64,000 nt of DNA from positions 8,678 to 72,677 of the forward strand of contig DATAIT010000031.1 of the NCBI GenBank assembly GCA_036262515.1. Direction: 5' to 3'. Shown piece after piece: positions 49,142-64,000 of the stretch (positions are counted from its first letter, which is position 1; every line of letters begins with the position of its first letter). Source of the stretch: Acidimicrobiales bacterium. Its GTDB lineage: Bacteria; Actinomycetota; Acidimicrobiia; Acidimicrobiales; GCA-2861595. Made by a program: the position numbers and the translations under genes. The notes beneath the pieces are model-generated. The model saw nothing but the letters and a program-made list of their open reading frames with translations, was not told where the DNA came from and made no database searches.

Positions 49142-49159
49142 CGCTAGCTTGCGATTCGC

Positions 49160-50377
49160 ATGAGTGCTGCCGGCGACCCGGGCACCGCCGGGGACCCGGG
49201 CGCAGGGCGGGGCACGCGGCGGCTGCGGGTCCTGTGGCTGGTGAAGGGTCTCGGCATCGGCGGCGCGGAACGGCTCCTGGTGGCCGGCGCCGGCGCCCGC
49301 GACGAGGCCGGGTTCGCCATCGAGGCAGCGTACGTCGTACCCGTGAAGTCGCAACTGGTCGGCGACCTCGAGGAGCGCGGCGTGCCGGTCACCTGCCTGG
49401 GCGGTGGTCGCCCGGGCGCGTGGGTGCCCAGGCTGCGGGCGCTTCTCGTGTCCGGCCGGTTCGACGTGGTGCACGTGCACTCCCCGCTCCTGGCCGGGAC
49501 GACCCGCCTGGCCGTCCGGACCCTGCCGAAGCGGCGCCGGCCGGCCATCGTGACCACCGAGCACAACGGCTGGTCGACGTTCACCCTCACGACCCGCCTC
49601 CTCAACGCCTTCACCGCACCGTTGGACGACGCCACCATCGCCGTCTCCGAGGAGACGCGGGCTTCGATGTGGTGGCCGGGTACCCGGCGGCGCACGGCCG
49701 TGCTCGTCCACGGCGTGGACCTCGACACCCTCCGCTCGGCGCGTCGCCACCGCGCCGCCGTCCGCCGCCAGCTCGGTCTCGTCGATGACGACGTGGCCGT
49801 GATGACGGTGGCCAACTACCGCGAGCAGAAGGCGTGGCCCGACCTCCTGGCCGCCGCCCGTGCCGTGATCGACCGCGGCCTGCCGGTGCGGTTCGTGACG
49901 GTCGGCCAGGGCCCACTCCAGGCCGAGATCGAGGCTCTGCACCGCCGCCTCGAGCTGGGGGACCGGGTGCTGCTGCTCGGCCGGCGTGACGACGTGCCGA
50001 GCCTGCTGGCGGCAGCCGACGTCTTCGTCCTCGCGTCCACCTACGAGGGCTACCCGCTGGCGGTGATGGAGGCGCTGGGCGCCGGTCTCCCCGTCGTCGC
50101 CACCGCCGTGGGCGGCGTGGTGGACGCCGTCGGCCCGGACTCGGGCGTGCTCGTCCCTCCCGGGCGACCGGACCTGCTGGCCGAGGCCGTGGCGCGGGTG
50201 GCGACCGATCCTGGCGAGCGGGCCCGCCTGGCCGCAGGCGCCGCCCGCGCCGGCGACGCCTACGACGTGGCCACGGCCGTGGCTGCCACCGAGACCATCT
50301 ACCGCCGGATCGCCCCGCCGGCCGCGACCGAGCGGCCGGCGCCGACCCGGCGCCGGGCCCGGCGATCCGGCACATGA
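49160..50377 (+). CDS. glycosyltransferase family 4
   Basis: Motifs: LRVLWLVKGLGIGGAERLL and VFVLASTYEGYPLAVMEALGAGLPVVATAVGG. Lies only 18 nt from the divergent asnB start. Confidence 0.85.
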   Translation: MSAAGDPGTAGDPGAGRGTRRLRVLWLVKGLGIGGAERLLVAGAGARDEAGFAIEAAYVVPVKSQLVGDLEERGVPVTCLGGGRPGAWVPRLRALLVSGRFDVVHVHSPLLAGTTRLAVRTLPKRRRPAIVTTEHNGWSTFTLTTRLLNAFTAPLDDATIAVSEETRASMWWPGTRRRTAVLVHGVDLDTLRSARRHRAAVRRQLGLVDDDVAVMTVANYREQKAWPDLLAAARAVIDRGLPVRFVTVGQGPLQAEIEALHRRLELGDRVLLLGRRDDVPSLLAAADVFVLASTYEGYPLAVMEALGAGLPVVATAVGGVVDAVGPDSGVLVPPGRPDLLAEAVARVATDPGERARLAAGAARAGDAYDVATAVAATETIYRRIAPPAATERPAPTRRRARRSGT

Positions 50378-50521
50378 CCCATGGATCGCCACGGAGCGTG
50401 GTGGTACGATCACAAAAGGGCGATCCGGCGGCCGATTCAGTCGTTCGGTCGGTCGGAGCACCGGCAACGGGGGGCGTACCGGCATACGGTCTCCCACGAG
50501 ATCGGCGGAGGTCGGAGAACT

Positions 50522-52450
50522 GTGGACAAGCGAGCGGGATCACGGTCGACGCCCACGTGGACGAAGGTCGCCCAGGTTGCAGCGCGCACGCGCAGCGACC
50601 TCGTGCTCGGCATCTTCGATGCCCTCCTCGTCACCGCCGCCTTCGCCACCGTGCTCGTGCTCCGCTTCGACGGCGAGGTCCCCGGGCACCATTGGCGCAG
50701 CTTCTGGGGCTTCGTCCCCTACGGCGTGGCGGTGAGCCTGGCCAGCAACTGGCTCTGGGGCCTCTACGGCCAGCTGTGGCGCCACGCCAGCATCCAGGAG
50801 GCCCGACGACTGCTACTGGCCGGAGCCACCACCACCTCGGTGCTGGTGTTCCTCGAGATCGGCGTACGTCGCACCGTCCCGTACTCCGTCGTCACCCTGG
50901 GCGTCGGCCTGGGCATCTTCCTCACGGGCGCCCTGCGCTTCCAGTCCCGGCTGTTCTCCTTCCAGCGGCGTTCCACCGACGGCACCGGTCTCCGGGTCGT
51001 GGTGATCGGTGCCGGCGACGCCGGGGCGGCCCTCGTGCGCGAGATGCTCCGCAGCCCGCGGGCCGGGCTGGTGCCGGTGGCGGTGCTCGACGAGGACGTG
51101 CGCCGGCACGGGCGGTCGTTCATGGGCCTGCGCATCGAGGGCGGCATCGCCGACCTGCCGCGGGTCGCCGCCCGCACCAACGCCCACCAGGCCGTGCTGG
51201 CCATGAGCTCCGTCGAGCAGTCCCTCGTGCGCCAGGCGGCGAGCGCGGCCGAGGAGGCCGGCGTGGCGCTGCGCATCGTCCCGGGCATGGCGTCGACCGT
51301 TGGGAACCGCGTGTCGATCAGCGACGTCCGCGACCTGCGCATCGAGGACCTCCTCGGGCGCAAGCAGGTGGTCACCGACCTCGATGGCGTGCGCCGGCTG
51401 CTGGAGGGCAAGCGGGTGCTCGTCACCGGTGCCGGCGGCTCGATCGGCTCGGAGATCTCGCGCCAGGTGGCCGCCTGCGATCCCGCCGCTCTCGTGCTGG
51501 TCGACCACGACGAGACGCACCTGCACGACACGGCCACGTCGGTCGCCGGTCCCACCGAGCAGGTGCTGGCCAACATCCGCGACCGCGACCTCATGCGGCA
51601 CGTGTTCGCCACGCACCAGCCCCAGATCGTGTTCCACGCCGCCGCCCACAAGCACGTGCCGCTCCTCGAGGCCCACCCCTGCGAGGCGGCCCTCACCAAC
51701 GTGGTCGGCACGGCCAACGTGCTCCACGCGGCCGAGCAGGTGCACGTCGAGCGCCTGGTGTTCATCTCCACCGACAAGGCCGTGGTTCCCTCCAGCGTGA
51801 TGGGCGCCTCCAAGCGGCTCGGCGAGCAGCTCGTGCTCGGGCAGGCGCCCGAAGGGACCCGCTACTGCGCGGTGCGCTTCGGCAACGTGCTCGGCAGCAG
51901 GGGCAGCGTCGTTCCCACCTTCATGCGCCAGATCGCCACGGGCGGGCCCGTCACGGTCACCGATCCCGCCATGACCCGCTTCTTCATGAGCATCGAGGAG
52001 GCCGTCCAGCTGGTCCTCCAGGCGGCGGCCATGGCCGAGGGGGGCGAGCTGTTCATGCTCGACATGGGCGAGCCCGTGCGCATCCTCGACCTGGCCGAGC
52101 GCATGATCCGGCTCTCGGGCCGGGAGGTCGGCACCGACATCGAGATCAAGGTCACCGGCGTCCGCCCGGGGGAGAAGCTGGTGGAGGAGCTGCGCGACAG
52201 CGAGGAGGACGCCTTTGCCACCATCCACCCGTCGATCATGAGGGTGCAGCCCCTTCCGACACCTGGGGCCCTCCTGCACATGGGCATGGTGCAGCTCGAG
52301 GCGTTCGCCACGGACCGCCGGTCCGAGGAGGTCCGCAACCTGATGTTCGCCCTGGCCGAGGCGCGGGTGCCGCCCGAGCCTGCACCGCGCGGCGCCCAGC
52401 CGGGTGGGACGGAGGGCGTGGCGCCGATGACAGGGACATCCAGGTCGTGA
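50522..52450 (+). CDS. membrane-bound nucleotide-sugar 4,6-dehydratase (CapD/PglF/WbpM family)
   Basis: Frame of ORF 50381-52450. GTG 50522 is proposed as the start because it is followed by the typical four N-terminal TM helices (start uncertain). Motifs: VVVIGAGDAG, VLVTGAGGSIGSEI, STDKAV, SKRLGE, FGNVLGSRGSV. Confidence 0.85.
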   Translation: MDKRAGSRSTPTWTKVAQVAARTRSDLVLGIFDALLVTAAFATVLVLRFDGEVPGHHWRSFWGFVPYGVAVSLASNWLWGLYGQLWRHASIQEARRLLLAGATTTSVLVFLEIGVRRTVPYSVVTLGVGLGIFLTGALRFQSRLFSFQRRSTDGTGLRVVVIGAGDAGAALVREMLRSPRAGLVPVAVLDEDVRRHGRSFMGLRIEGGIADLPRVAARTNAHQAVLAMSSVEQSLVRQAASAAEEAGVALRIVPGMASTVGNRVSISDVRDLRIEDLLGRKQVVTDLDGVRRLLEGKRVLVTGAGGSIGSEISRQVAACDPAALVLVDHDETHLHDTATSVAGPTEQVLANIRDRDLMRHVFATHQPQIVFHAAAHKHVPLLEAHPCEAALTNVVGTANVLHAAEQVHVERLVFISTDKAVVPSSVMGASKRLGEQLVLGQAPEGTRYCAVRFGNVLGSRGSVVPTFMRQIATGGPVTVTDPAMTRFFMSIEEAVQLVLQAAAMAEGGELFMLDMGEPVRILDLAERMIRLSGREVGTDIEIKVTGVRPGEKLVEELRDSEEDAFATIHPSIMRVQPLPTPGALLHMGMVQLEAFATDRRSEEVRNLMFALAEARVPPEPAPRGAQPGGTEGVAPMTGTSRS

Positions 52451-53622
52451 TCACCCCGCCCGCCGTGGTGGGCGGGCCGCAAGCGTTCCCCGACGGTCTC
52501 CCGATCACGCGGCCCTACGTGCCCGGCATCCCGGCCCTCGCCTCCCGCCTGCAGTCCATCCTCGACAGCGGCCGCCTCACCAACGGGCCCACCGTGGGCG
52601 AGTTGGAGGAGAAGGTGGCGCAGCTGCTCGGCGTGGCCCACGTCGTCGGCGTGTCCAGCTGCACGGCCGGCCTCATGCTCGTGCTCCAGGCGCTGGAGGC
52701 CACCGGTCGGGTGGTCCTGCCCAGCTTCACGTTCTCGGCCAGCGCGCACGCCGTCGTGTGGGCCGGCGGCGCTGCGGACTTCGCCGAGGTCGACGGTTCG
52801 ACCTGCACGCTCGACCCGGCCGACGTGGCGCCGATGGTCGAAGGCGCGTGCGCCATGACGGCCACCCACGTGTATGGCACCCCGTGCCGCACCGACGAGC
52901 TCCAGGCGCTGGCCGACGGGGCGGGGATACCGCTCGTCTACGACGCCGCCCACGCCCTCGGCAGCAAGCGGGGCGGCGTGCCCATCGGCGGCTTCGGCGC
53001 GGCCGAGGTGTTCAGCCTGAGCCCCACCAAGGTCGTGGTCGCCGGCGAGGGCGGCCTGGTCGCCACCAACGATGCCGGCCTGGCCGAGGCCTGCCGACTC
53101 GGCCGCGATTACGGGAATCCCGGCGACTACGACTGCCGCTTCCCCGGCCTCAACGCCCGCCTGTCCGAGCTCCACGCCGCCGTCGCGCTGGCATCGCTGG
53201 AGGGCCTCGACGAGCGGGTCGCGTACCGCAGCGCCCTCGCCGCCCGCTTCGCCGCCGGCGTGGCCGGCGTGGCCGGGCTTCGCCCGGCAGCCGTCGGCGC
53301 AGGGGACACCTCCACGTTCAAGGACCTCACGGTGATCGTCGAGGCCGAGTCCTTCGGCCTCACGGCGGAACAGCTCGGGCGGGCCCTGCGGGCGGAAGGC
53401 ATCGACTCCCGTCGCTACTACCACCCGCCGATCCACCAGCAGAAGGCCTACGCCTCCCGCTGGGCCGAGCGGCGTCCCCTGCCCGTCACCGAGCTGCTGT
53501 CCACGAGCGTGCTGAGCGTTCCGCTGTGGTCCCACATGACGCCCGACCACATCGACGGCATGGCCGACGCCGTGGTGCGCATCCACACCGACGCCGAGGC
53601 GGTCCGTCATGCCCTCGCATGA
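52447..53622 (+). CDS. DegT/DnrJ/EryC1/StrS (PglE-like) sugar aminotransferase
   Basis: GTG 52447 overlaps the preceding stop (GTGA). Motifs: GPTVGELEEKVAQLLG, SCTAGLMLVLQAL, FSLSPTKVVVAGEGG (PLP Lys). Confidence 0.9.
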   Translation: MITPPAVVGGPQAFPDGLPITRPYVPGIPALASRLQSILDSGRLTNGPTVGELEEKVAQLLGVAHVVGVSSCTAGLMLVLQALEATGRVVLPSFTFSASAHAVVWAGGAADFAEVDGSTCTLDPADVAPMVEGACAMTATHVYGTPCRTDELQALADGAGIPLVYDAAHALGSKRGGVPIGGFGAAEVFSLSPTKVVVAGEGGLVATNDAGLAEACRLGRDYGNPGDYDCRFPGLNARLSELHAAVALASLEGLDERVAYRSALAARFAAGVAGVAGLRPAAVGAGDTSTFKDLTVIVEAESFGLTAEQLGRALRAEGIDSRRYYHPPIHQQKAYASRWAERRPLPVTELLSTSVLSVPLWSHMTPDHIDGMADAVVRIHTDAEAVRHALA

Positions 53623-53780: not shown

Positions 53781-55562
53781 ATGTTCATGGAGCCCATTGA
53801 GTACGCCAGGCTGATCCGACGCAGGTGGCGGATCCTCGCCGCGTGCTGCCTGGTGTCCTTCGTCGTCGTCTGGGTCCTCACGCCCGCCTCGCCGGCCGCA
53901 GAGGACCCCGAGTACGTGGGCGAGCACACCTTGATCCGCAGCGACGACAACGCGTCGCCGCAGGCGCTGGTCACCGTGGCCCTGTTCGTGAAGACCGGTG
54001 AGGTTCCCCGCCGCGTCGCCGAACGCATCGGCTTCACGCGCGACCCCGCCCTGCTTGCCAGGAGCGTCGATGTCGACGTGGACGAGCAGATCGGCACCCT
54101 CACCGTGCAGGCCACCGCCAACGGGCGGGCGGCCGCCAGCGAGCTGGCCAACGCCTTCGCCGAGGAGACGCTGGCCGTCCTCGGCGAGAAGGCACAGCAG
54201 GCCCTGGAGAAGACCAAGAGCGACCTGGCCGCGCGCGTCGTCAAGCGGCGGGCCACCATCGACGACCTCGAGCACCAGAGCGCGGCGGCCCGCGCCGCCG
54301 GCAACTCCTCCGAGCTGATCGACGCGCAGCGCGATGCCGAGCTCCGCCTCTACGGCGCCGACCTCGAGCTCCAGCAGAAGCAGGCCGACCTACCGCCGCC
54401 TTCCGCCGGCTTCGTGACCCTCGAAGCCGCCACCCCCGACCTGGCCGAGCCGAAGAACGCGGGCCTCGGCGTGCCGGCCAGCCGCCCCGGCCGCGCTGCG
54501 GCGGCGGGCCTTCTCGGCCTGCTGCTCGGCGCCGTCGTCGCCCTGGTCGTCGAGCGGGTGGACCCCGCCATCACCCTGCGCTCGGGCGCCGAGCGGGCGT
54601 TCAAGCTACCGGTCGTGGCCGAGGTGCCCTTCAGCCGGGGTCGGCGCTACGACGTGGCCACCGCCACCGACCCGTCCTCGTCGGTGGCCGAGGCATACCG
54701 CGCCGTGCGCTCCGCCCTGCTTCTCATTCCCGGTACCACCCTCGGCCGCGTCGACGACATCCCGAGCGCCGAGCCGGCCCGCCCCGATCCTTCCGTCCGG
54801 GTGCCGAGCATCCTCGGGCCGACCGGGAACGGCCACGTCGCACCGCCCACCGACGGGGCCGGGAGCGCCCCCTTCACCGAGCCGCAGGTCGTGCTGGTGA
54901 CGTCGGCTGCGCCCAGCGAGGGCAAGACGGCCACCGTGGCCAACCTGGCCGCCAGCTTCGCCGAGACCGGACGCTCGGTCCTCGTGCTCAGCTGCGACTT
55001 CCGCCGGCCCTCGATCCACGAACATCTCGGCGTGCGACAGGCATGGGGTCTCACCGACGTCCTCGAGGGCGGTTCGGCGGCGCCCAGGCTCGCCGACGTG
55101 GTGAAGGAGACCCACATCCCCGGCGTGCGCATCGCCACCAACGGCTCCCCCCTCGACAGCTATGGCGAGGTGGCGGCCGGCGGTCGCCGGCTGGTGCAGG
55201 AGGCACGGTCGCTGGCCGACATCGTGCTCATCGACACCGCCCCCCTTCTCGTGGCCCACGAGGCGACAGAGCTCATCCCCGCCGCCGACACCGTGCTCGT
55301 GGTGTGCCGCAGCGGCCAGACGTCGAAGGAGGACGCGGTGCGCACGCGCGAGATGCTCACGCGCCTGCGGGCGTCGGTGGCCGGCGTGGTGCTGGTGGGC
55401 GCGCCGGAGAGCGACACCGGGTACTCGACCTACTACTACGAGGCCCGCCCCAAGCCGGCACGGCGCGGCATGGGTGCCTGGATCCTCGGGCGGGCGCCGG
55501 CCAAGCAGCCCGAGCCGACGACCGACGTGAGCGAGCCGGAGAGGAAGCGGGCCGTCACCTGA
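53781..55562 (+). CDS. polysaccharide co-polymerase (Wzz domain) fused to a BY-type tyrosine autokinase
   Basis: N-terminal TM (ILAACCLVSFVVVWVL), coiled-coil periplasmic region, second TM. Walker A SAAPSEGKTATVANLA, Walker B IVLIDTAPL, C-terminal Tyr cluster GYSTYYYEA. Confidence 0.85.
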   Translation: MFMEPIEYARLIRRRWRILAACCLVSFVVVWVLTPASPAAEDPEYVGEHTLIRSDDNASPQALVTVALFVKTGEVPRRVAERIGFTRDPALLARSVDVDVDEQIGTLTVQATANGRAAASELANAFAEETLAVLGEKAQQALEKTKSDLAARVVKRRATIDDLEHQSAAARAAGNSSELIDAQRDAELRLYGADLELQQKQADLPPPSAGFVTLEAATPDLAEPKNAGLGVPASRPGRAAAAGLLGLLLGAVVALVVERVDPAITLRSGAERAFKLPVVAEVPFSRGRRYDVATATDPSSSVAEAYRAVRSALLLIPGTTLGRVDDIPSAEPARPDPSVRVPSILGPTGNGHVAPPTDGAGSAPFTEPQVVLVTSAAPSEGKTATVANLAASFAETGRSVLVLSCDFRRPSIHEHLGVRQAWGLTDVLEGGSAAPRLADVVKETHIPGVRIATNGSPLDSYGEVAAGGRRLVQEARSLADIVLIDTAPLLVAHEATELIPAADTVLVVCRSGQTSKEDAVRTREMLTRLRASVAGVVLVGAPESDTGYSTYYYEARPKPARRGMGAWILGRAPAKQPEPTTDVSEPERKRAVT

Positions 55563-55575
55563 ACGGGGCCGGGAG

Positions 55576-56991
55576 ATGATCGCCGCGCTTCGGACCAGCA
55601 CCCTGCGGCCCTACGGGGTCACGATCCCCGCCATCGCCGCCGTCGGCGCCTACATGGCCTTCCTGTCGTGGGCCGTCGAGAACAGCGGGTACGACACCTG
55701 GGGCGGCGTGCTCGTCGCCACCGCCGTACTGCTCGCCAGCCTGCCGGTCGTCCGCTACCTGGCCCGGCGCGAGGCGGATCCGCGGGTCGCCCGCCTGCTC
55801 CCCTGGGCGCTGGCGCTCAAGCTCGGGGCCTCGCTCATCCGCCTGGCCATCACGTTCGGCGTCTACGACGGCGTGGCGGACGCCACGACCTACCACTCGG
55901 CCGGCCAGCTGCTCGCCCCGCTGTACCGGCGCGGCGACTTCTCCGCCGACATCGGCCCGCTCGTCGGGACCGGCTTCGTGAAGGCGCTCACCGGCGTGGT
56001 CTACGCGGTCATCGGTGCCACCCGCCTCGGGGGTTTCGTCGTCTTCTCGTGGTTCGGCTTCTGGGGCCTCTACCTCTTCTACCGGGCCTTCTGCGTGGCG
56101 TGCCCCGAAGGCGACCAGTGGCGCTACGCCCGCCTGGTGTTCCTCCTGCCCTCCTTGCTGTTCTGGCCCTCGAGCATCGGCAAGGAAGCGTGGATGACCC
56201 TGGCGCTCGGGATGGCCACCTACGGCGCGGCCAGGATCCTGACCCGCGCACGCGGTGGGTTCGCCGCGCTCGCCGCCGGCGGCCTGGCCATGATGGCGGT
56301 GCGGCCCCACGTGGCGATCATCCTGGTGGTGAGCCTCGTGCCCGCCTACCTGTTCCGGCGCCCTCCAGCCGGCGGGTCCATCCTCGGGCCGGTCGCCAAG
56401 ATCGGCGGAATCCTGCTGCTCGGGGTGATCCTCGCCGTCGCTGTCGGCGAGGCCTCGGAGCTGTTCGGGCTCCAGGACCGGTTCGACGCCGAAGCGGTGT
56501 CCCAGGTGCTCGAGCGGGCCAACGAGCAGACGGCGGTGGCGGGGTCGGCGTTCGGGACCGGTTCGACGGATTTCTCGCCGTCGGCCTTCCCCCGCGAGCT
56601 GATGTCCGTGCTGTTCCGCCCCTATCCCTGGGAGGCGGGCAACGCCCTTGCCTTCGCGGCGTCGATCGAGGGCACGTTCCTCCTCGGCCTCATGGTCGTG
56701 TGCCGGGGCCGGCTGGTGGGTGCCGTCCGGTCCATCCTGCGGACGCCGTACGTCGTCCTGTGCCTCGTCTACGCCGTGCTCTTCATCTACGGCTTCTCCA
56801 GCTTCGCCAACTTCGGGGTCTTGACGCGCCAGCGCGTGCAGGTGTTCCCCTACCTGCTGGTCCTCCTGGCGCTCCCGTCCCACCGCCACACCGACGGCGG
56901 TTGGCGCGACCTGTTCACCCGGCCCTACGACGACGTGCCCGGCGAGGCGGACGGCGAGCGCAGCCTGGCGTCCACGTCGCCTCCGCGATGA
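55576..56991 (+). CDS. polytopic membrane protein, candidate glycan polymerase
   Basis: 471 aa with about 11 hydrophobic segments and no soluble domain. Placed between the Wzz-kinase and the PqqD-like gene. No motif recognised. Confidence 0.45.
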   Translation: MIAALRTSTLRPYGVTIPAIAAVGAYMAFLSWAVENSGYDTWGGVLVATAVLLASLPVVRYLARREADPRVARLLPWALALKLGASLIRLAITFGVYDGVADATTYHSAGQLLAPLYRRGDFSADIGPLVGTGFVKALTGVVYAVIGATRLGGFVVFSWFGFWGLYLFYRAFCVACPEGDQWRYARLVFLLPSLLFWPSSIGKEAWMTLALGMATYGAARILTRARGGFAALAAGGLAMMAVRPHVAIILVVSLVPAYLFRRPPAGGSILGPVAKIGGILLLGVILAVAVGEASELFGLQDRFDAEAVSQVLERANEQTAVAGSAFGTGSTDFSPSAFPRELMSVLFRPYPWEAGNALAFAASIEGTFLLGLMVVCRGRLVGAVRSILRTPYVVLCLVYAVLFIYGFSSFANFGVLTRQRVQVFPYLLVLLALPSHRHTDGGWRDLFTRPYDDVPGEADGERSLASTSPPR

Positions 56992-57287
56992 CCGACGGCG
57001 AGTGCTGGGCCCGGGCCGACGCAGCGCTGTTCCGGCGCTGCTGGGGCACGGTCCTCGTCCGCCTGCCGGACGGCCCGGTGCACACGCTCACCGGCACCGC
57101 CTCGGAGATCTGGGAGCTCCTCGCGCGTCGGTCGACGGTGGCCGAGCTGGTCCATGCGCTGTCGCATCGGTACGACGCCGTGCCGGACGTTATCGGGCCG
57201 GACGTGGCCCGCTTCATCGAGACGTTGTCCGCCGCCGGCGTCGTCGCGGCCGGCCCGGGTCCTTCGACGGCTTCGCCCGTTGCCTGA
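56988..57287 (+). CDS. PqqD-family (RRE-type) small protein
   Basis: ATG 56988 overlaps the preceding stop (ATGA). VHTLTGTASEIWELLARRSTVAELVHALSHRYDAVPDVIGPDVARFIETLSAAGVV matches the PqqD winged-helix pattern. Confidence 0.75.
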   Translation: MTDGECWARADAALFRRCWGTVLVRLPDGPVHTLTGTASEIWELLARRSTVAELVHALSHRYDAVPDVIGPDVARFIETLSAAGVVAAGPGPSTASPVA

Positions 57288-58425
57288 GGGGTCCGGGATC
57301 CCGATCCCGGGCACGCCGCTGCTGCGGGCGGTGGCCGCCTACGGCCTGCCCGGTACCCGTCCCCCGTTCCCCACCGTGCCCCTCCCGGACGGTGCATGGG
57401 CCGACCTCCTCGGCGGCGCCGGCCGCCAGCGCGTGGTCGGTTTACTGGCGGCGGCGGTCGGCGACGGCGCGTTCGAGGTGAGCGCCGGCCAGCGTGACGA
57501 GCTGGCCGACGTGCACTGCGCCACCATGACCAGGGTCCTCGACATCGAGGCGGCCGCCGTGCACGTCGTCGGCCTCCTCGGCGGTGCAGGCGTCGACGTC
57601 CGGGTCCTCAAGGGGCTCGCCGCCGCCCATCTCGACCTGCCGGACCCCTCGCAGCGCGAGTTCGGGGATGCCGACCTCCTCGTCCGGCCCAGCGCCTTCG
57701 CGCCGGCCGTCGAGCTGCTCGTCGCCGCCGGGCTGCCGCGGGACCTGCCCGAGCGGCGGGCCGGGTTCGACCGTCGCTTCGGCAAGGACGCCACCGTCTA
57801 CGGCCGGAGCGGCGTGGAGATCGATCTCCACCGCACCCTGGCCCTCGGCGCCTTCGGCATGGCCCTCGAGCCGGACCTCGTCTGGGACGACGGCGAGCCG
57901 TTCCGGATGGGGCCGCACGAGGTCCGCGCCCTGGCACCCGCCGCCCGGCTCGTGCACGCCTGCTACAGCGCCGTGCTCGGCGACCGCGTCCCACGGCTGC
58001 CCGCGCTGCGTGATGTCGCCGCCCTCGCCGGTCGGGCCGACATGGCCGCCGATGTGGTCGTACGGCTGGCCGAGCGGGGCCGGGGCGGTTCGGTGGTGGC
58101 GCTCGGGGTGCGGCTGGCGGCCGAGACCATGGGGACCGGCTCGTCGTGGCCACTGTCGCCCTGGGCCCGGGCCCGTCCGCAGTCACGGTGGGAGCGCACC
58201 GCCCTCGCCTCCTACGAGAGCCATGGAGGTACCAACACGTCCACCTTGCTGGCGGGGGTCCTCGGCCTGTCGACGGCGGGCGCCCGGCTGTCGTATCTGT
58301 CGGCCCTGGCCTTCCCCGCTCGCCACTACCTGTCGGCACGGCGCGACGCCGGCCGACCCTCCGAGCGCCGGCAAGGCCTGCACGAGTTGGCGCTCGGCAG
58401 GCGAGCCCGCCGGACGCCCGGCTGA
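57280..58425 (+). CDS. uncharacterised nucleotidyltransferase (NTP_transf_5-like)
   Basis: Frame of ORF 57154-58425. TTG 57280 is proposed as the start (uncertain). Motifs: VDVRVLKGLAAAHLDLPDPSQREFGDADLLVRPSAF...VEIDLHRTL, the G-x-D-x-D plus DLH pattern of this family. Confidence 0.7.
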   Translation: MPEGSGIPIPGTPLLRAVAAYGLPGTRPPFPTVPLPDGAWADLLGGAGRQRVVGLLAAAVGDGAFEVSAGQRDELADVHCATMTRVLDIEAAAVHVVGLLGGAGVDVRVLKGLAAAHLDLPDPSQREFGDADLLVRPSAFAPAVELLVAAGLPRDLPERRAGFDRRFGKDATVYGRSGVEIDLHRTLALGAFGMALEPDLVWDDGEPFRMGPHEVRALAPAARLVHACYSAVLGDRVPRLPALRDVAALAGRADMAADVVVRLAERGRGGSVVALGVRLAAETMGTGSSWPLSPWARARPQSRWERTALASYESHGGTNTSTLLAGVLGLSTAGARLSYLSALAFPARHYLSARRDAGRPSERRQGLHELALGRRARRTPG

Positions 58426-58538
58426 TCCCGCAGGACCAAGGTCGGGCGCTCTCGGTGGTCGAAGGAGACGGTTTGTCACACAGCGTCCACCTGCTACCGT
58501 ATGCGGCAATCGAGATGGTGGGGACGGGGAGAACGCAC

Positions 58539-59069
58539 ATGGAACGAGAGACGGGAACCGAAGGCCTTTCGAGGCGTGACGTCCTCAAGCGCTCCGCCGT
58601 CGTCGGCGGTCTCGTGTGGGTGGCCCCGACGGTGCTGTCGTCTTCGGCAGGCGCCACGTCTAATCTCGCCAACTGCGCGCCCTCCTCTCGATTCGCGCTG
58701 AAGCACGGCGCCCCGAACGAGGCGTGCGAGACACCGGGCACGAACCCCACCACCGGCAACTGCTCGGCCAGCGCCGGCTTCACCTCCTTCCGGGACGGGT
58801 GCTGCCTCGAGTCGCACGGTCTCATCACCTTCAGCGAGAGCGGCAACCACCAGACCCATACCTACGTGCTGGCCAGCGGCGTCGAGCTGGCCGGGGCGTT
58901 CGCGAAGTGCGCGACGGACTGCATCGGCTACTCACCTTCGAGCTCCGTGATCACCGTCACCACCGACCCGTCCACCGGGAAGACCACGGTCACCATCACC
59001 TGCTCCAACCTGTCGCACAGCGAGATCGTCGTGTGCTTCAGCGGTTCGAACGCCCCGAACTGCCCCTGA
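58539..59069 (+). CDS. Tat-signal secreted cysteine-rich protein (10 Cys), paralogous leader to 60523-61263
   Basis: ATG 58539. Leader MERETGTEGLSRRDVLKRSAVVGGLVWVAPTVLSSSAGA (twin-Arg plus h-region plus AxA). The mature ~135 aa have 10 Cys, including a CC pair. No family recognised. Confidence 0.7.
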   Translation: MERETGTEGLSRRDVLKRSAVVGGLVWVAPTVLSSSAGATSNLANCAPSSRFALKHGAPNEACETPGTNPTTGNCSASAGFTSFRDGCCLESHGLITFSESGNHQTHTYVLASGVELAGAFAKCATDCIGYSPSSSVITVTTDPSTGKTTVTITCSNLSHSEIVVCFSGSNAPNCP

Positions 59070-59146
59070 CGACCCCAGACCGCCGGGCCCCGGCGGAGGA
59101 GCAACCGGAGACGGGGCCCAGGTTCTCGACACGGCCGTTCGGCGCG

Positions 59147-59953
59147 TTGGGGCACCGCTTCCGCTTCGAGGTCCCCGACCAGGAATGGGCGGCGTACCTG
59201 GCCGGAGCGCTCGGTTCCCTCGCGTCCGACGGCCCTGCCGGGCGGTGGTCCGTGATCGACCATGGGCTCGAGGCAACCGGCGGGCGGTATGGGGCATACC
59301 GCGACGGCCGCCGGCTCTTCTGGTGCGACGACGCCGACGACGTCGTGCCGCTCCTGCTGTGGTGGGTCAACCGGACGATCTGCTTCGAGACGGACCACCG
59401 GGTGATGGTGCACGCCGCCGCCGTCACTGCCGGCGACCGGGCTCTCGTCCTGCCGGCCCCGCAGGAGTCGGGAAAGACGACGCTGGCGGCAGCCCTTGTC
59501 GGGGAGGGCTTCGGCTACCTCACCGACGAGGCGGCGGCGTTCGACCCCGCCACCGGCGTAGTCGACCCGTATCCCAAGTGGCTGTCGCTCAAGGCCGGGT
59601 CGTGGGCCCTGTTCCCCCACCTCCGGCCACGGTTGCCGGCGCGGGTGGCCCGATTCGCGGCATCGCAGTGGCACGTCGACCCCAACGCCGTCCGCCCGGA
59701 CTCGGTGGCCCGCAGCGCCGAACCGGCGTGGCTCGTCGTCCCTCGCTACGAGCCCGGGCGGTCCACCGATCTCCAGCCCATGGAGCGGTCCGAAGCCCTG
59801 TCGCTGCTCGCCGGGGAGGCGTTCACGCTCCGGCGCTTCGGTCCGGCGGGATTCCAGGTGCTGGCGGAAGTCGTTCGGCGGAGCTCGTGCTGGAGGCTCA
59901 CCACGGGTTCCCTGGACGACGCCGTCGCCGCCGTGCGGTCGATCACCGGCTGA
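59147..59953 (+). CDS. HPr kinase-like P-loop protein (HprK-related kinase)
   Basis: Frame of ORF 58724-59953. Start uncertain (TTG 59147 is the first candidate after the upstream stop). Motif VMVHAAAVTAGDRALVLPAPQESGKTTLAAALVGEGFGYLTDEAAAF is the HprK C-domain pattern: H-A, P-loop, L-x-D-E. Confidence 0.7.
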   Translation: MGHRFRFEVPDQEWAAYLAGALGSLASDGPAGRWSVIDHGLEATGGRYGAYRDGRRLFWCDDADDVVPLLLWWVNRTICFETDHRVMVHAAAVTAGDRALVLPAPQESGKTTLAAALVGEGFGYLTDEAAAFDPATGVVDPYPKWLSLKAGSWALFPHLRPRLPARVARFAASQWHVDPNAVRPDSVARSAEPAWLVVPRYEPGRSTDLQPMERSEALSLLAGEAFTLRRFGPAGFQVLAEVVRRSSCWRLTTGSLDDAVAAVRSITG

Positions 59954-59989
59954 GGCCCCGCCCGGCGGCGATCGTCTACCGTCGCGACG

Positions 59990-60406
59990 GTGCGCGAAGG
60001 ACGCTGGTTCATCTGGCTCGTCGTCGTCCTGGCCACCGTGCTGGCCGCCGACACGCTGCACCTGTTGCCGGGCTCGGACGACGATCGCGTCCGCCGGCGC
60101 CGGCCCGACGTGCTCGGCGAGGTGATCACCCGCGACACTGTCCCCGCCGATCCAGCGCTGACCGCACCCGTGGCGACGGCACCGGCGACGCCGCCGACCG
60201 CGCCGCGCACCGTCCCGACTACGGCGGCGCCGGTCCCGGCCACCGTGGCCCGGGCGAGCACCACGAGGCCCAGCACCACCACCCGCCCGACGGTGGCGAC
60301 GACGACCACCACGGCGACGACGAGCCCCGACGAGACGACCACGTCGACGTATCCCTCAGTCGAGCCGCCGACCGATCCGCCGGACACGGTGACGCCGCAG
60401 ACCTGA
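59990..60406 (+). CDS. membrane-anchored Thr/Pro-rich low-complexity protein
   Basis: GTG 59990. N-terminal helix WFIWLVVVLATVLAA, then ~100 aa dominated by T, P and A (TTRPSTTTRPTVATTTTTATTSPDETTTSTYPSVEPPTDPPDTVTPQT). Confidence 0.5.
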   Translation: MREGRWFIWLVVVLATVLAADTLHLLPGSDDDRVRRRRPDVLGEVITRDTVPADPALTAPVATAPATPPTAPRTVPTTAAPVPATVARASTTRPSTTTRPTVATTTTTATTSPDETTTSTYPSVEPPTDPPDTVTPQT

Positions 60407-60522
60407 GCCTCGCCCGCCCGGAGGGCGGCCAGGCGTCCGGCCGCTCGTCGCCCGACGGTGCGGGACGGATGCGCGGCGCTTCCGGCGCCTCCGCCCTGCT
60501 CACGTGGTGCGGGAGCCGTGCC

Positions 60523-61263
60523 TCAGCAGCTCAAGGGGACGCAGTTGATCTTGGAAAGCTGGGTGACGCAGAGCTCCATCTCGATGAAGTTCAGCTTCGT
60601 GCCGAGCGTCTTGGTGGTCATGTACATGCCGCTGATGGGCGTGGCGCACCCGCACGGCACACCGTTGCTGCTGCCACAGCGCTGGCCGGTGGGCCGAAAG
60701 TCGTCGACCTGGCCGGTGCAGCGGGTGCTGGCCGGGCCGGTCCCGCCCGTGTACACCTGGAACATGGCGTCGTCGTCGCTGGCCGCCGGATCCGTGAAGA
60801 TGCACGGGTCGTTGTTGCCCGAGCACGCCGGCACGCCGTTGTACTGCTCGGCGTTGAACGACGCCGTCCACCGGTAGATCACGCTGAAGCCCTCGTTGCA
60901 GCGGACGATGTAGCAGCTGTTCTCCGACTTGATGGCGAACTTGTACGGCGTGACGCCGGTGCCGAAGGCGAGGGAGGCCGTGTCGTCGTTGCTGTTGACG
61001 TCGTCGCAGTTGCCCAGCAGGCCGGCGCCCACGAGGCAGTCGAACTCGAAGCGGGCGATGGAGCCCGGCTGGAGGCACTGGTTCTGGCACGTCTGGGAGT
61101 TGCCCGGTGCGAACTTGGCGTAGATGAGGTCACCCCCGTCGCAGGCGCAGCATCCGGCCGCTTGGCCCCATGCCCGCCCGCTCGACAGCATCGGCGCAGC
61201 CCACACGAGGCCTCCCGCCACCGCCGACCGCTGCAGCAGCTCCCGTCGTGTCAGCCCGCCCAT
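60523..61263 (-). CDS. Tat-signal secreted cysteine-rich protein (18 Cys)
   Basis: ATG 61263 follows GAGGGGG (ORF track start 61296 is a GTG alternative). Leader MGGLTRRELLQRSAVAGGLVWAAPMLSSGRAWG. The mature part opens with CCAC and contains 18 Cys. Lower GC than the surroundings (56 of the first 100 nt, counted 60523-60622). Confidence 0.7.
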   Translation of the reverse strand: MGGLTRRELLQRSAVAGGLVWAAPMLSSGRAWGQAAGCCACDGGDLIYAKFAPGNSQTCQNQCLQPGSIARFEFDCLVGAGLLGNCDDVNSNDDTASLAFGTGVTPYKFAIKSENSCYIVRCNEGFSVIYRWTASFNAEQYNGVPACSGNNDPCIFTDPAASDDDAMFQVYTGGTGPASTRCTGQVDDFRPTGQRCGSSNGVPCGCATPISGMYMTTKTLGTKLNFIEMELCVTQLSKINCVPLSC

Positions 61264-61373
61264 GTCGCCCCCTCGTGTCCGCCAGCGTTTCGCCACGCAT
61301 AGTGGCTGTGGTCACAGCGTACACGCTGCGTGCCGGCGGGTGAAGCGAAATCTCACCCGATGTGGTGAGAACA

Positions 61374-62315
61374 CTACCGACAAAGACGGTCAAACCCGCC
61401 TGTCTCGACCAGGGTGGCGACCAGCGCCGGGACCCCGGCGAGCCCGTCGAGCACCAATCGGTGGCACGTCGCCCGCCGGACGCACCCTTCCAGGCGCTCG
61501 AACCCCGCCTGGCCCAGGGCGTTGAGGTTGAACGTGAGCGGCAGGAGCCGCTCCAGCGCCTCGGCCCGGGCGACCGGCTCGAGGCGGGCGGTGGCGCCGG
61601 CGACGACCTCGGGGAACACGATGGCGGCGGGGGTGGCTGCGGTCGGTTCGCACGGGATCCCGAGCGATGCCGGCAGCACAAGGCGCAGGTCGCTCACCAT
61701 GGCCGGCACACCGGCCGGCCACCGGTCGGCTGCCTCGGGGACAAGCGACCACGAGCCGGCCTCCAGTGCCAGCGGGCGGGGGTAGGGCCGCACCTCGGCA
61801 CCTCCCGGGCCGAGCGCCGCCACCTCGTCGGAGAGGTACCTCCACCCGGCCAGGACGAGGGCCGTCACCAGCGTGGTCTTGCCGGCGCCGGAGCGGCCCG
61901 GCATCACGACCGCACGGGCCCCCAGGCTGGCGACCGCGGCGTGCACCAGCACGTCCTGCGTCGGGGCGGCCAGGGCGAGGCGGTTGAGCTGCCAGACGAG
62001 CGAGCGGGCCATGGCCGTGGTGGAGGGCGCGGACACCGTGCGGGCGCCGTCCTCGTATGCGGCCCAATACCCACGCACGCTGACGACGTCGAGCCGGGTG
62101 CGGGCGGCCTCGGCGCTCGGAAAGGCGGCGACGAACGCCTCCAGGAACCGGCCCAGCTCTGCGTCCTCACAGCGCAGCAGCAACCGCTCGTCGAGGAGGC
62201 GGATGGGACCGAGCACGGTCGCCCACGTGATCCGGTCGAGGAGCTCCGGGTCGATGGTGAGTGGCGGACCGCCGTCCGGCGCCGGCGCCAGAGCGGCGGC
62301 GTCGAGGACGTTCAC
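61374..62315 (-). CDS. HPr kinase-like P-loop protein (second copy)
   Basis: GTG 62315 overlaps the upstream stop (GTGA 62312-62315). The longer ORF-track start would overlap the upstream gene by 220 nt. Motif VLVHAAVASLGARAVVMPGRSGAGKTTLVTALVLAGWRYLSDEVAAL aligns with the 59147-59953 protein. Confidence 0.75.
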   Translation of the reverse strand: MNVLDAAALAPAPDGGPPLTIDPELLDRITWATVLGPIRLLDERLLLRCEDAELGRFLEAFVAAFPSAEAARTRLDVVSVRGYWAAYEDGARTVSAPSTTAMARSLVWQLNRLALAAPTQDVLVHAAVASLGARAVVMPGRSGAGKTTLVTALVLAGWRYLSDEVAALGPGGAEVRPYPRPLALEAGSWSLVPEAADRWPAGVPAMVSDLRLVLPASLGIPCEPTAATPAAIVFPEVVAGATARLEPVARAEALERLLPLTFNLNALGQAGFERLEGCVRRATCHRLVLDGLAGVPALVATLVETGGFDRLCR

Positions 62316-63088
62316 GCCGGCGGAGGCCGGTCGAGGACGGCGTCGACCATGGCCGAGGAGTGGCCCGGGAACATCGATGCCGCTCGGATCGACGTGAACA
62401 GCTCGGCCACCGTGGCGAGCAGCTCGGCGTCGGGATGGTGGATGCCGTCGAGGATCTCGAGCACGGCGGCCCGGGTGGCGGTGGCCCGGCTGATGGGGCC
62501 CCAGCGCCCGCCGTAGTCGACGAACACCCATCGCTCGATGGGATAGCGCCCGTGGGCCAGCGTGGGCTCGGCCCGCCGCTGGACGACCCCGTCGGCGGCA
62601 CGGGCGAGGGCGTCGCCGTCGACGTCGACGAGATCGGTGACCACGAGCTCACCGGACACGAGGTCCACGAGGGCGCGGGGGGCGTCGACGGCGACGTAGC
62701 CGGCGGTCCGGAGCTGGCGGTCGACGATGCGCAGGTCGTCCTTGAACGGCGACGGCATCAGCACCGCCCGCCCGTCCCGGACATAGGGGAGCGAGCTGAT
62801 CCACACCAGCTCCTCCGGAGGCGGGCGGTGGGCGGAGAGGTGATCGACCAGCGAACGCAGGATGCGGTGCGGGTCGAAGGACCGGGCCGCCACGCACCCA
62901 CCCCAGAAGAGGAGGTGGGCGTCGGACGTCGTGGGGCTGAAGCGGAGGGAGAAGTTCTTCGGCGCCAAGGGGTCGTCCACCACATGGGCGGCCAGGGCCC
63001 GGCGCACGGCCATTGCTCCGGCTTCGGTGTTCACCCTGATGCCCGCCCGCAGCGAACCGAGATCGACGGTGCACGAGTCCACCCACAC
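62312..63088 (-). CDS. hypothetical protein, apparent P-loop-less paralogue of the HprK-like proteins
   Basis: GTG 63088. The block VWISSLPYVRDGRAVLMPSPFKDDLRIVDRQLRTAGYVAVDAPRALVDLVSGELV aligns by eye with VHAA..G.RA.V.P...SGKTTL...L...G...L.DE of the two kinases, but it lacks GK[ST]. Confidence 0.5.
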   Translation of the reverse strand: MWVDSCTVDLGSLRAGIRVNTEAGAMAVRRALAAHVVDDPLAPKNFSLRFSPTTSDAHLLFWGGCVAARSFDPHRILRSLVDHLSAHRPPPEELVWISSLPYVRDGRAVLMPSPFKDDLRIVDRQLRTAGYVAVDAPRALVDLVSGELVVTDLVDVDGDALARAADGVVQRRAEPTLAHGRYPIERWVFVDYGGRWGPISRATATRAAVLEILDGIHHPDAELLATVAELFTSIRAASMFPGHSSAMVDAVLDRPPPA

Positions 63089-63109
63089 GAGGTGGTCGAC
63101 GGTCTGGCC

Positions 63110-63514
63110 TCACGGGGCCGGTGGGTCCACCAGGTACGCCGGCCGCCACAAGCTCTCGTCGGCGGCCGCCTCTGTGGTCGTCTGGCCCGATCCGACGAGG
63201 AGGTCCTGCCCGGGCTCGCTGCCGTCGAGGACACGGGCCGTGCGCAGGGCGGCGAGCAGGTCGCCGAGGTCCTTGCGCACCGCTGCGGCCGGCGCCGAGA
63301 ATGCCTCGGCCAGGTCGACGACCAGCTCGTCGACCGTCGCCTCCCCGTCGAGCACCGACCAGATCACGGTGCCCAGCCGGTCCAGCTGGTGCAACCCGTC
63401 CGTGCGCGGGTCCAGCAGCAGCAGCTCCCCGTCGAGCGGCATGGCGACCAACCCGGCTGCCGGCCGCGGAGCGAACGACCCGTCGATCACCTCTGCACTG
63501 TGCGTATGCGCCAC
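63110..63514 (-). CDS. PqqD-family (RRE-type) protein
   Basis: Motif LVAMPLDGELLLLDPRTDGLHQLDRLGTVIWSVLDGEATVDELVVDLAEAFSAPAAAVRKDLGDLLAALRTARVL, plus a 35-aa acidic/Thr tail. Confidence 0.7.
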   Translation of the reverse strand: MAHTHSAEVIDGSFAPRPAAGLVAMPLDGELLLLDPRTDGLHQLDRLGTVIWSVLDGEATVDELVVDLAEAFSAPAAAVRKDLGDLLAALRTARVLDGSEPGQDLLVGSGQTTTEAAADESLWRPAYLVDPPAP

Positions 63515-63556
63515 GGCGTCTCCTGTGCTCGTCGAAGGCTACGACCCGGTCGGTGC

Positions 63557-63850
63557 CTAGGAAGGTTCTTCGACCAGGAGGCCCATCTCCGAAAGCCGTG
63601 CGACCAAGGTGACGACGTCGCGCCGCACGACCTCGGGCGGCGTGGCGAAGCCGGCGGCGAGATCACCGGTGACCTCGTCGAGCGACGACTCGCCGTCGAG
63701 GCAGGCCCACACGAGCGAGCCCACGCGATCGAGACGGGCCACGCAGCCGGTCTCGGGGTCCCAGAGCACGCGCTCACCGTCGAGCTCAGCGTCCCCGAGT
63801 CCCGCCTTGTGGCGCCACGTCGACCCCGTCCGGATCCCCTCGTCAGTCAC
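63557..63850 (-). CDS. PqqD-family (RRE-type) protein
   Basis: GTG 63850. Motif AELDGERVLWDPETGCVARLDRVGSLVWACLDGESSLDEVTGDLAAGFATPPEVVRRDVVTLVARLSEMGLL. Confidence 0.7.
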   Translation of the reverse strand: MTDEGIRTGSTWRHKAGLGDAELDGERVLWDPETGCVARLDRVGSLVWACLDGESSLDEVTGDLAAGFATPPEVVRRDVVTLVARLSEMGLLVEEPS

Positions 63851-64000
63851 CGGTCGACCCCTTCCCGACGGTGGCCCGCCGCCGGGACGCCACCTCCCGC
63901 AGCCCGGTGGTCCACTCGCGCGGCCGGCCGGCCCGGCGCCGGGCGTCCAGGTAGGCGGCGTCGGGCGCCACCAGGGCCCGCACGTAGCGCGCCCGCGCCT
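63844..64000 (-). CDS. 3-prime end of an unidentified gene (runs off window end)
   Basis: Own translation of the minus strand gives ARARYVRALVAPDAAYLDARRRAGRPREWTTGLREVASRRRATVGKGSTGD with stop at 63844-63846. It overlaps the next start by 7 nt. The frame was chosen for protein-like composition only. Confidence 0.3.

Follow-up and report, generated by a model that had tools for sequence, protein, structure and literature searches.

PqqD domains are the leader-binding elements of the pathways for peptides that are made by the ribosome and modified after translation (RiPPs). Cassettes that pair a PqqD protein with a kinase related to HprK are annotated widely, with neither function nor substrate named; among them is the HPr-rel-A system, which presumably occurs near exopolysaccharide loci and for which we know of no function. 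In the accessory Sec system (SecA2/Y2), a specialised signal peptide marks serine-rich glycoproteins that are modified before export, and the proofreading chaperones TorD and NapD of twin-arginine translocation (Tat) check their substrates in the cytoplasm before export. In lasso-peptide clusters, HPr-kinase homologues phosphorylate a leader-bearing precursor at its C-terminal Ser, and the attachment of one or two hexoses to the phosphate depends on PsmN, an 'uncharacterised NTP transferase' whose D134A/D136A mutant is inactive (PMC8498205, PMC6993621). Here we examined a 64,000-nucleotide stretch of an Acidimicrobiales genome (GCA_036262515.1, contig DATAIT010000031.1, positions 8,678 to 72,677), referred to as the window, in which genes for HprK-like kinases, a kinase paralogue devoid of the P-loop (the pseudokinase), PqqD-family proteins and NTP_transf_5 nucleotidyltransferases (together, the cassette) stand beside genes for two proteins, Cys1 and Cys2, that begin with a Tat-type leader.

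The window has a G+C content of 72-75%. An earlier note on this DNA, made from the letters alone, had described ten genes of the cassette and its partners as two facing modules, and all of these (10/10) were recovered as open reading frames (ORFs) at or near the positions it gave. Its statement that HPr-kinase homologues phosphorylate precursor peptides in some lasso clusters agrees with the published work (PMC8498205, PMC6993621).

Leader-protein genes are concentrated beside the kinase

To avoid circular reasoning, a sample of loci (L numbers designate all loci compared here) was fetched by a kinase motif alone, with 12 obtained from reference genomes by narrow search patterns and 79 from metagenomes. 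The sampled kinases were 26-82% identical to those of the window. When these loci were scanned with an untrained regular expression for Tat signals, 31 ORFs (1.58 per 10 kb) were detected in the 196 kb lying no more than 1.5 kb from a kinase, compared to 4 ORFs (0.09 per 10 kb) in the other 435 kb, a density of Tat-leader ORFs approximately 17 times higher near the kinase than elsewhere. Hidden Markov models (HMMs) of the leader gave a similar picture: the first model had 38 matches near kinases and 1 far from any (a Cys1 paralogue, P0009), and the three leader models combined had 55 matches at most 2 kb away from a kinase, with 2 elsewhere.

A leader ORF was present in 27/37 non-redundant loci, counting those with at least 3 kb of visible flank, and Tat-like ORFs were spotted by eye in two loci additional to these 27 (L048, L052). 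Beside many kinases the leader was joined to a core unrelated to those of the window (e.g., L030, L031, L036, L038, L040, L055, L068, L069, L078-L081 and L083). The earlier note had staked its proposal on such cassettes occurring together with proteins of this kind, and the pairing was found to recur both in the operon comparison described below and in the kinase-first sample. The association of kinase and leader ORF, which extends over several phyla, is thus directly supported.

Twin-arginine leaders are conserved and their cores are not

The leader of the Cys1 and Cys2 type (type I) has the consensus G-L-[ST]-R-R-[DE]-x-L-[KQ]-R-S-A-V-x-G-G-L-V-W-x-A-P, a twin-arginine signal whose hydrophobic region is conserved to an unusual degree. 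An S/T-R-R-x-x-L-K motif was read in 19 aligned leaders. The signals also have an h-region of moderate hydrophobicity and a cleavage site of the AxA type. Based on these signal features, proteins of the Cys1 and Cys2 types are predicted to be Tat substrates.

Cys1 (58539-59069, plus strand) is a protein of 176 aa from a family of n=12 that matches the leader HMM at E=2.9e-18 and passes the TIGR01409 TAT model (21.6 bits vs 16.7). Cys2 (60523-61263, minus strand) is a protein of 246 aa from a family of n=32, and it just misses the same model at 15.2 bits. The leader spans approximately residues 1-39 of Cys1 (58539-58655) and residues 1-33 of Cys2 (61165-61263), and is followed by a core with 10 conserved Cys in Cys1 and 12 in Cys2. 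BLASTP aligned the two proteins over 106 residues at 36% identity, and the part that was clearly conserved was the N-terminal leader; by profile comparison (hhalign) they matched at 98.3% over 112 columns, with a weak continuation of the similarity into the core's N-terminal half. An AlphaFold2 (AF2) model of Cys2 was all-beta (pLDDT 74.5) and had no match in the PDB at E<0.001 by Foldseek. No NCBIfam or Pfam model covers the leader proteins except for the generic TAT signal.

What follows the leader ranges from 15-residue peptides to proteins of 250 aa. Type I cores often contain a Cys-rich region of 60-100 residues that begins with CCxC just past the predicted cleavage site. The earlier note had taken a Tat signal combined with Cys richness as the mark of the partner protein; the link to a conserved Tat leader stood, and Cys richness as a defining feature was ruled out by leader proteins that are free of Cys, namely those of L099 and L012-L015, the second protein of L083 and most of the short peptides of proteobacterial type. 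After its type I leader, the L099 protein (7085-7537, minus strand; 150 aa) has a stretch rich in Ser, Thr and Pro, then the sequence LAYTG and a transmembrane segment, and last a tail that is charged; by these features it looks like a sortase substrate. Its gene is divergent from a PqqD-kinase pair. The cores of L012 and L015 are similarly rich in Thr, Ser and Pro.

Two further leader types were found beside the kinases. The second has 45 residues ('...RRxxLK...W-x-K-P-[VI]-V...P-A-H-A') and is common to an alphaproteobacterial (Hyphomicrobiales) locus with four paralogous precursors (L011 3000-9219), Chloroflexota (L012-L014; L012 5630-6331) and an unclassified bacterium (L015 9192-9503). 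The third, of proteobacterial type ('..RRAFVKTAAQVAVTAPAV..LLSAS..'), is found on peptides of 61-95 residues, including three encoded in tandem in L076 (1101-2372) and others in L073, L082, L084 and L087. An LDDF[TS][FY]GN motif is common to several of the short cores of this type.

Paralogous precursors that combine one leader with differing cores in a single locus were found in the window, L011 (four), L036, L040, L076 (three) and L079. Taken together, the conserved leader, the hypervariable cores and the presence of several precursors per locus form the pattern of RiPP precursors at the level of sequence.

Two side observations concern leader-protein genes. An ORF of L006 (14049-14381, plus strand) starts with a type I leader and continues in Ala/Arg/Pro-rich text that is apparently out of frame, which may reflect a frameshift in the metagenome-assembled genome (MAG) or a degraded precursor gene. 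Subtilase (Peptidase_S8) genes were seen near the leader-protein genes of L055 (3048-5105) and L018 (1-160).

Enzymes of the cassette

The window encodes two P-loop kinases that are 37% identical to each other. Kinase 1 (plus strand, ending at 59953) and kinase 2 (61374-62315, minus strand) have TIGR04352 (HprK_rel_A) as their best named family, with 139.9 bits (E=8.5e-41) and 119.7 bits (E=1.2e-34), respectively, both below the curated cut-off of 200 bits. Kinase 1 had been given a TTG start at 59147, and the start is probably the GTG at 59033 (59033-59953), as judged from orthologue lengths, which agree with it, and from the resulting 37-nt overlap with the Cys1 stop, which is the same in the orthologues of L001 and L003. 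Precomputed matches to PF27840 (ScmC) exist for the kinase family. The Pfam Hpr_kinase_C model, suggested earlier as a check, gave no match to the kinases, and when the PDB was searched by sequence with the profiles of both kinase and pseudokinase, P-loop noise was all that came back.

The fold was approached with an AF2 model of kinase 2 that was built on 34 homologues (pLDDT 94.7). Compared to the PDB by Foldseek, this model matched ATP-dependent phosphoenolpyruvate carboxykinase (PEPCK; E=1.2e-6, probability 1.0) and HprK/P (3tqf, 1kkl and 1jb1; E=3e-4 to 5e-3, probability 1.0). Because the PDB neighbours of the model are PEPCK and HprK/P, the label 'HprK-like' is right at the level of the predicted fold. 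The P-loop, His and Asp-Glu residues are all kept, with H125, G145-K146-T148, Y160 and D163-E164 invariant.

The pseudokinase (62312-63088, minus strand; 258 aa) had no similarity to the kinases by BLASTP. Its profile, built from 61 homologues, was collinear with the kinase profile over 257 columns (hhalign 94.7%, E=5.7e-8), and its HMM matched true kinases at E=1e-5 to 1e-7. By these sequence profiles it is a paralogue of the kinases, in a relationship that is visible at profile level only. An exhaustive HMMER search placed 477 representative clusters in the pseudokinase family at E<=1e-3.

Three PqqD-family proteins are encoded: PqqD_a (56988-57287, plus strand), which pairs with NTP_transf_5; PqqD_b (63110-63514, minus strand), the partner of the pseudokinase; and PqqD_c (63557-63850, minus strand), the partner of the NTP_transf_5 encoded upstream of it. 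They pass PF05402 with 58.0, 48.1 and 51.8 bits, respectively (gathering score 23.4), score 19.5, 19.4 and 17.4 bits against TIGR04353 (cut-off 35 bits), and match TIGR04248 weakly. The NTP_transf_5 nucleotidyltransferase (57280-58425, plus strand) reaches 97.3 bits against PF14907 (gathering score 31.2) and keeps the motif LKG...D-x-D-[LIV]LV in 6/6 aligned orthologues, with D130-A-D132 as the catalytic pair.

Natural fusions link PqqD to each type of enzyme: to the kinase in L009, L032, L058, L067 and L087, to the pseudokinase in P0053, P0057, P0064 and L031 (5316-6518), and to NTP_transf_5 in L017, L018 and L026. Fusions make up many of the pseudokinase family's members. Kinase and PqqD genes adjoin in most of the approximately 90 annotated loci, as they do in the window. 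Thus, the domain identities put forward in the earlier note are directly supported for the three PqqD-like genes (all above the gathering score), for the NTP_transf_5-like gene (97 bits and DxD in 6 orthologues) and for the P-loop kinases (TIGR04352 with AF2 and Foldseek support), and its call of a P-loop-less HprK paralogue was borne out by profile comparison and not by BLASTP.

A core operon and an accessory module

Contigs carrying homologues of Cys1 (n=12) and Cys2 (n=32) were the starting point of the operon comparison. The order PqqD-NTP_transf_5-PqqD-PqqD-pseudokinase-kinase-Cys2, with Cys2 invariably last, was found to be conserved in L001, L003, L004, L016-L019, L020, L023 and the window, the Cys2 proteins of these loci being down to 42% identical to that of the window. 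The named relatives carrying this core operon are Acidimicrobiales MAGs, and genes for a tyrosine autokinase and a membrane protein of approximately 470 aa always precede it in the conserved loci.

In the window, the minus-strand operon is truncated by the window edge: it starts with a second NTP_transf_5 gene, of which the final 51 codons fall inside, at 63844-64000 on this strand (phmmer E=3.3e-6 vs the window's own NTP_transf_5). The stop of this gene overlaps the PqqD_c start, and its position agrees with the operon order in L001, L016 and L019; both modules of this genome therefore own an NTP_transf_5 gene. The equivalent of PqqD_a is the first PqqD of the core operon (cf. L016 6000-6275). 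Inspection of the junctions confirmed an ATGA overlap between the membrane-protein gene stop and the PqqD_a start, a GTGA overlap between the pseudokinase and kinase 2 genes, and an overlap of 8 nt between PqqD_a and NTP_transf_5, together with the TTG start of the latter.

The accessory module consists of Cys1, a kinase and the TP protein, and is confined to the subclade of the window, L001, L003, L004 and L023. The TP protein (59990-60406, plus strand; 138 aa), which has an N-terminal hydrophobic anchor and a Thr/Pro-rich region, has orthologues in L001, L003 and L004 only and no family match in Pfam or NCBIfam. In the other members of the subclade the module lacks a PqqD or NTP_transf_5 of its own, and only in the window is the PqqD_a-NTP_transf_5 pair placed before Cys1. 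The locus had been read as a duplicated module. This view is accurate only in part: gene order and distribution reveal one conserved core operon and an accessory module, which in the window has gained a PqqD-NTP_transf_5 pair of its own, not two equal duplicates. Conservation of the operon itself is directly supported. LuxR/GerE regulator genes were also seen to adjoin the cassettes of L055, L078 and L083.

Proposed route of leader-guided maturation

We propose that the cassette directs a leader-guided maturation of proteins and peptides, in which phosphorylation in the cytoplasm, with possible extension by a sugar or nucleotide, would be followed by Tat export; we give this proposal an even chance. 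That the co-encoded leader proteins are the substrates is a reasonably probable part of it. The specific chemistry (phosphorylation and phosphate extension) is drawn by analogy to the lasso systems and is offered as a tentative part. Since the pairing of kinase cassette and leader protein recurs in approximately 40 unrelated loci, the export signal probably also guides the modification.

By this proposal, the substrates would be the twin-arginine-leader proteins encoded with the enzymes, Cys2 for the core operon and Cys1 for the accessory module. We infer that the PqqD proteins would bind the leader in the cytoplasm, in the manner of RiPP recognition elements (RREs), and hand the substrate to their partner enzymes; the conserved leader and the fusions that join PqqD to every enzyme type lend the binding indirect support. 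The kinase of HprK/PEPCK fold and its P-loop-less paralogue would phosphorylate Ser or Thr of the core. A sugar or nucleotide may then be added to this phosphate by NTP_transf_5, for which the surrounding amino-sugar genes would furnish the donors. Near-invariant residues that are candidate phosphosites by alignment are T58, T217 and S237 of Cys2 (the last in C-V-T-N-L-S-K) and S159 and S161 of Cys1 (C-S-N-L-S-H-S). The same leader would then serve Tat export and be cleaved by signal peptidase. Because the leader would double as a Tat signal that signal peptidase removes, no dedicated protease or transporter would be needed, and neither was detected among the Pfam and NCBIfam matches of the cassette proteins.

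Several points weigh against this proposal. The C-terminal Ser, which is the site of the lasso kinases, is not conserved in the leader proteins, and the lasso site rule is for this reason not transferable. The likeness of PsmN to NTP_transf_5 is one of description and DxD motif. No leader ORF was detected within 2 kb of the kinase in L032 or in a clade of five loci (L008, L009, L041, L056 and L088) composed of tyrosine kinase, membrane protein, PqqD and kinase. P0009 (L002 10001-10519, GCA_046596195.1) has the same leader as Cys1 in a locus with no kinase or PqqD; this is a polysaccharide locus, with a Wzy_C-GT2 fusion, Phosphodiest and two GH5 cellulases, and the same genome has a full cassette elsewhere (L003). 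Furthermore, the cassette is always found within polysaccharide or amino-sugar loci, so that a glycan substrate also fits.

Neighbouring genes and alternative explanations

The genomic company of the cassette bears on the alternative just raised, by which the cassette would act on polysaccharide, either phosphorylating or nucleotidylating a lipid-linked glycan or regulating the tyrosine autokinase and membrane protein, and the Tat proteins would be merely co-regulated matrix or accessory proteins. Positions 47192-53622 of the window resemble an amino-sugar pathway, as read from sequence. They encode a glutamine-hydrolysing amidotransferase, AsnB (47192-49141), which has an MCGIAG N-terminus, scores 455 bits against TIGR01536 (cut-off 267) and has the XrtA/PEP-CTERM amidotransferase as its nearest model; a GT4 glycosyltransferase; a membrane-anchored, PglF/PseB-like UDP-GlcNAc 4,6-dehydratase (50381-52450); and a DesI/PseC-like aminotransferase (52447-53622). 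The Wzz-like tyrosine autokinase (BY-kinase; 53781-55562, plus strand) has TIGR01007 and TIGR03018 matches on its C-terminal ATPase domain. The membrane protein next to it (55576-56991, plus strand) is polytopic, with 471 aa and at least 8 hydrophobic segments, had no Pfam or NCBIfam match, and may be an undescribed part of the polysaccharide or maturation machinery.

These two genes accompany the cassette in at least 17 loci, where the stop codon of one gene frequently overlaps the start codon of the next, and tyrosine autokinase homologues precede it in L001, L003, L004, L006, L008, L009, L016-L019, L026, L031, L041, L045, L056 and L088. Distant cassettes too are ringed by sugar-nucleotide and polysaccharide genes, including DegT, a CapD/PglF-like 4,6-dehydratase, epimerase, UDP-glucose dehydrogenase, Bac_transf, WecG and Wzy_C. 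The five-locus clade devoid of a nearby leader ORF and the P0009 polysaccharide locus devoid of a cassette speak for the same view. However, PqqD is a peptide-binding module, and three such proteins are present, each fused elsewhere to an enzyme. Leader ORFs are concentrated at the kinase and not over polysaccharide loci generally, and mere bystanders would hardly be expected to keep one leader before hypervariable cores or to include short precursors in tandem. Action on a glycan is thus, in our view, unlikely, if still to be reckoned with.

A second alternative concerns Cys chemistry. In this scheme a Ser/Thr phosphate would be eliminated to a dehydro-amino acid to which Cys adds, yielding a thioether as in class III/IV lanthipeptides, or the cassette would control Cys redox state or disulfides before export. 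Type I cores are indeed very rich in Cys, often with CCxC after the predicted cleavage site, and a catalytically dead paralogue could act as a lyase or scaffold. Three proteins (P0081, P0088 and P0156) fuse the pseudokinase to PqqD and a thioredoxin-like domain (AhpC-TSA/Redoxin, ResA/MauD-like), a hint of substrate thiol handling. These thioredoxin fusions are few, however, with none in the window; Cys is wholly absent from many leader proteins, and no lyase or cyclase domain was detected in Pfam and NCBIfam scans. We regard Cys chemistry as improbable.

In a third alternative there is no covalent change of the secreted proteins. The PqqD proteins would, like TorD or NapD, be chaperones that proofread Tat substrates, keeping the signal peptide bound until the protein has folded or taken up a cofactor, with the kinase and NTP_transf_5 in some other role. 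The leader is conserved beyond what Tat requires, the Cys-rich cores could bind metal, and Tat genes adjoin the cassette in two independent cases. In L087 (2954-6133; L075 alike), tatA-tatB-tatC lie directly upstream of a PqqD-kinase fusion that is followed by a twin-arginine leader peptide of 80 residues. In L038, an independent locus of high GC content that encodes a leader protein with 12 Cys as well, a TatA_B_E gene (5740-6216, plus strand; PF02416, 64 bits) directly follows the kinase and pseudokinase. This proximity equally speaks for the proposed leader-guided maturation. A chaperone role leaves the PqqD fusions to kinase, pseudokinase and NTP_transf_5 unexplained, as well as the intact catalytic motifs, and cores of 15-45 residues cannot fold around a cofactor. 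Such a role is accordingly given very little weight.

That the locus is a lasso-peptide cluster, either degenerate or cryptic, whose short precursor escaped annotation has practically no probability. In its favour, lasso clusters are known to combine a kinase, PqqD and a nucleotidyltransferase, and an Asn-synthase-like gene lies 8 kb upstream. It was ruled out by this gene, the only one of its kind, being a true AsnB (its score against the lasso cyclase model NF033535 is 190 vs 525 bits), by the absence of a B2 protease domain among the cassette proteins and by the lack of a C-terminal Ser, and the intergenic gaps measure 22-117 nt.

Significance and comparison with known systems

The leader gene that consistently neighbours the cassette offers a concrete, testable substrate for enzymes of this kind. 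If leader-guided maturation proves true, modification of the RiPP type would also apply to entire secreted proteins, one signal peptide would serve as both enzyme-recognition tag and export signal, and the functionless HPr-rel-A-type cassettes would gain their substrates. It could also reveal a bacterial protein phosphorylation, or sugar-on-phosphate modification, that is tied to surface polysaccharide loci. In its broadest form the proposal describes a widespread class, in which a Tat signal doubles as the leader recognised by PqqD, and an HprK-fold kinase, its dead partner and NTP_transf_5 add phosphate or phospho-sugar before housekeeping Tat export; the substrates would range from 15-residue peptides in Proteobacteria to Cys-rich or mucin-like surface proteins in Acidimicrobiia and Chloroflexota. 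This general form is possible, and we advance it with some doubt. Confidence in the kinase prediction is high and its partners are small, so that expression of these proteins should be practical.

A full-text literature search, with subscription journals outside its coverage, found no paper on these cassettes or on a twin-arginine leader recognised by an RRE. More distant likenesses may be set out first. The accessory Sec system and the TorD and NapD chaperones provide an analogy, in that a conserved signal marks the cargo and that S/T/P-rich substrates with a sortase motif occur (L099), but the proteins are unrelated, the translocase is another one and neither a kinase nor an RRE takes part. 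Class III/IV lanthipeptide synthetases resemble the cassette in a kinase-initiated modification of a leader-bearing and often Cys-rich precursor; they differ in kinase fold, and the window has no lyase or cyclase and many cores of the leader family have no Cys. The SynChlorMet cassette is related through its kinase ScmC (PF27840/TIGR04249), to which the precomputed PF27840 matches of the kinase family point, and through ScmD, a PqqD relative. The window differs from it by the absence of a radical SAM/SPASM partner, and TIGR04249 scored 16.7 vs 125 bits (L009).

The HPr-rel-A system (TIGR04352/TIGR04353) also has kinase and PqqD adjacent. Its resemblance to the window had been noticed earlier, and this held in that TIGR04352 is the best named family and the gene arrangement agrees, but not in the scores (140/120 vs 200 bits for the kinases and 17-19.5 vs 35 bits for the PqqD proteins). 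As both models score below their cut-offs, we did not file the window proteins under HPr-rel-A. No source names a substrate for that system, and the Tat-leader partner matches only the generic TAT signal model.

The lasso tailoring set (PadeK/PsmK, B1 and PsmN of paeninodin and pseudomycoidin) brings together a kinase, a PqqD protein and an NTP transferase with DxD, as does the window. By contrast, the window has no cyclase, B2 protease or ABC exporter. Its leader is a twin-arginine signal, its substrates would include proteins of 130-250 aa with no C-terminal Ser, and it adds a pseudokinase, three PqqD genes and a polysaccharide setting. Thus, the lasso trio of kinase, B1 and PsmN is the closest system by mechanism and HPr-rel-A is the closest by name, and what would be new here, within RRE-guided maturation as a kind, is that a Tat signal serves as the leader, that the substrates are whole proteins, that a pseudokinase takes part and that the genes are set in polysaccharide loci.

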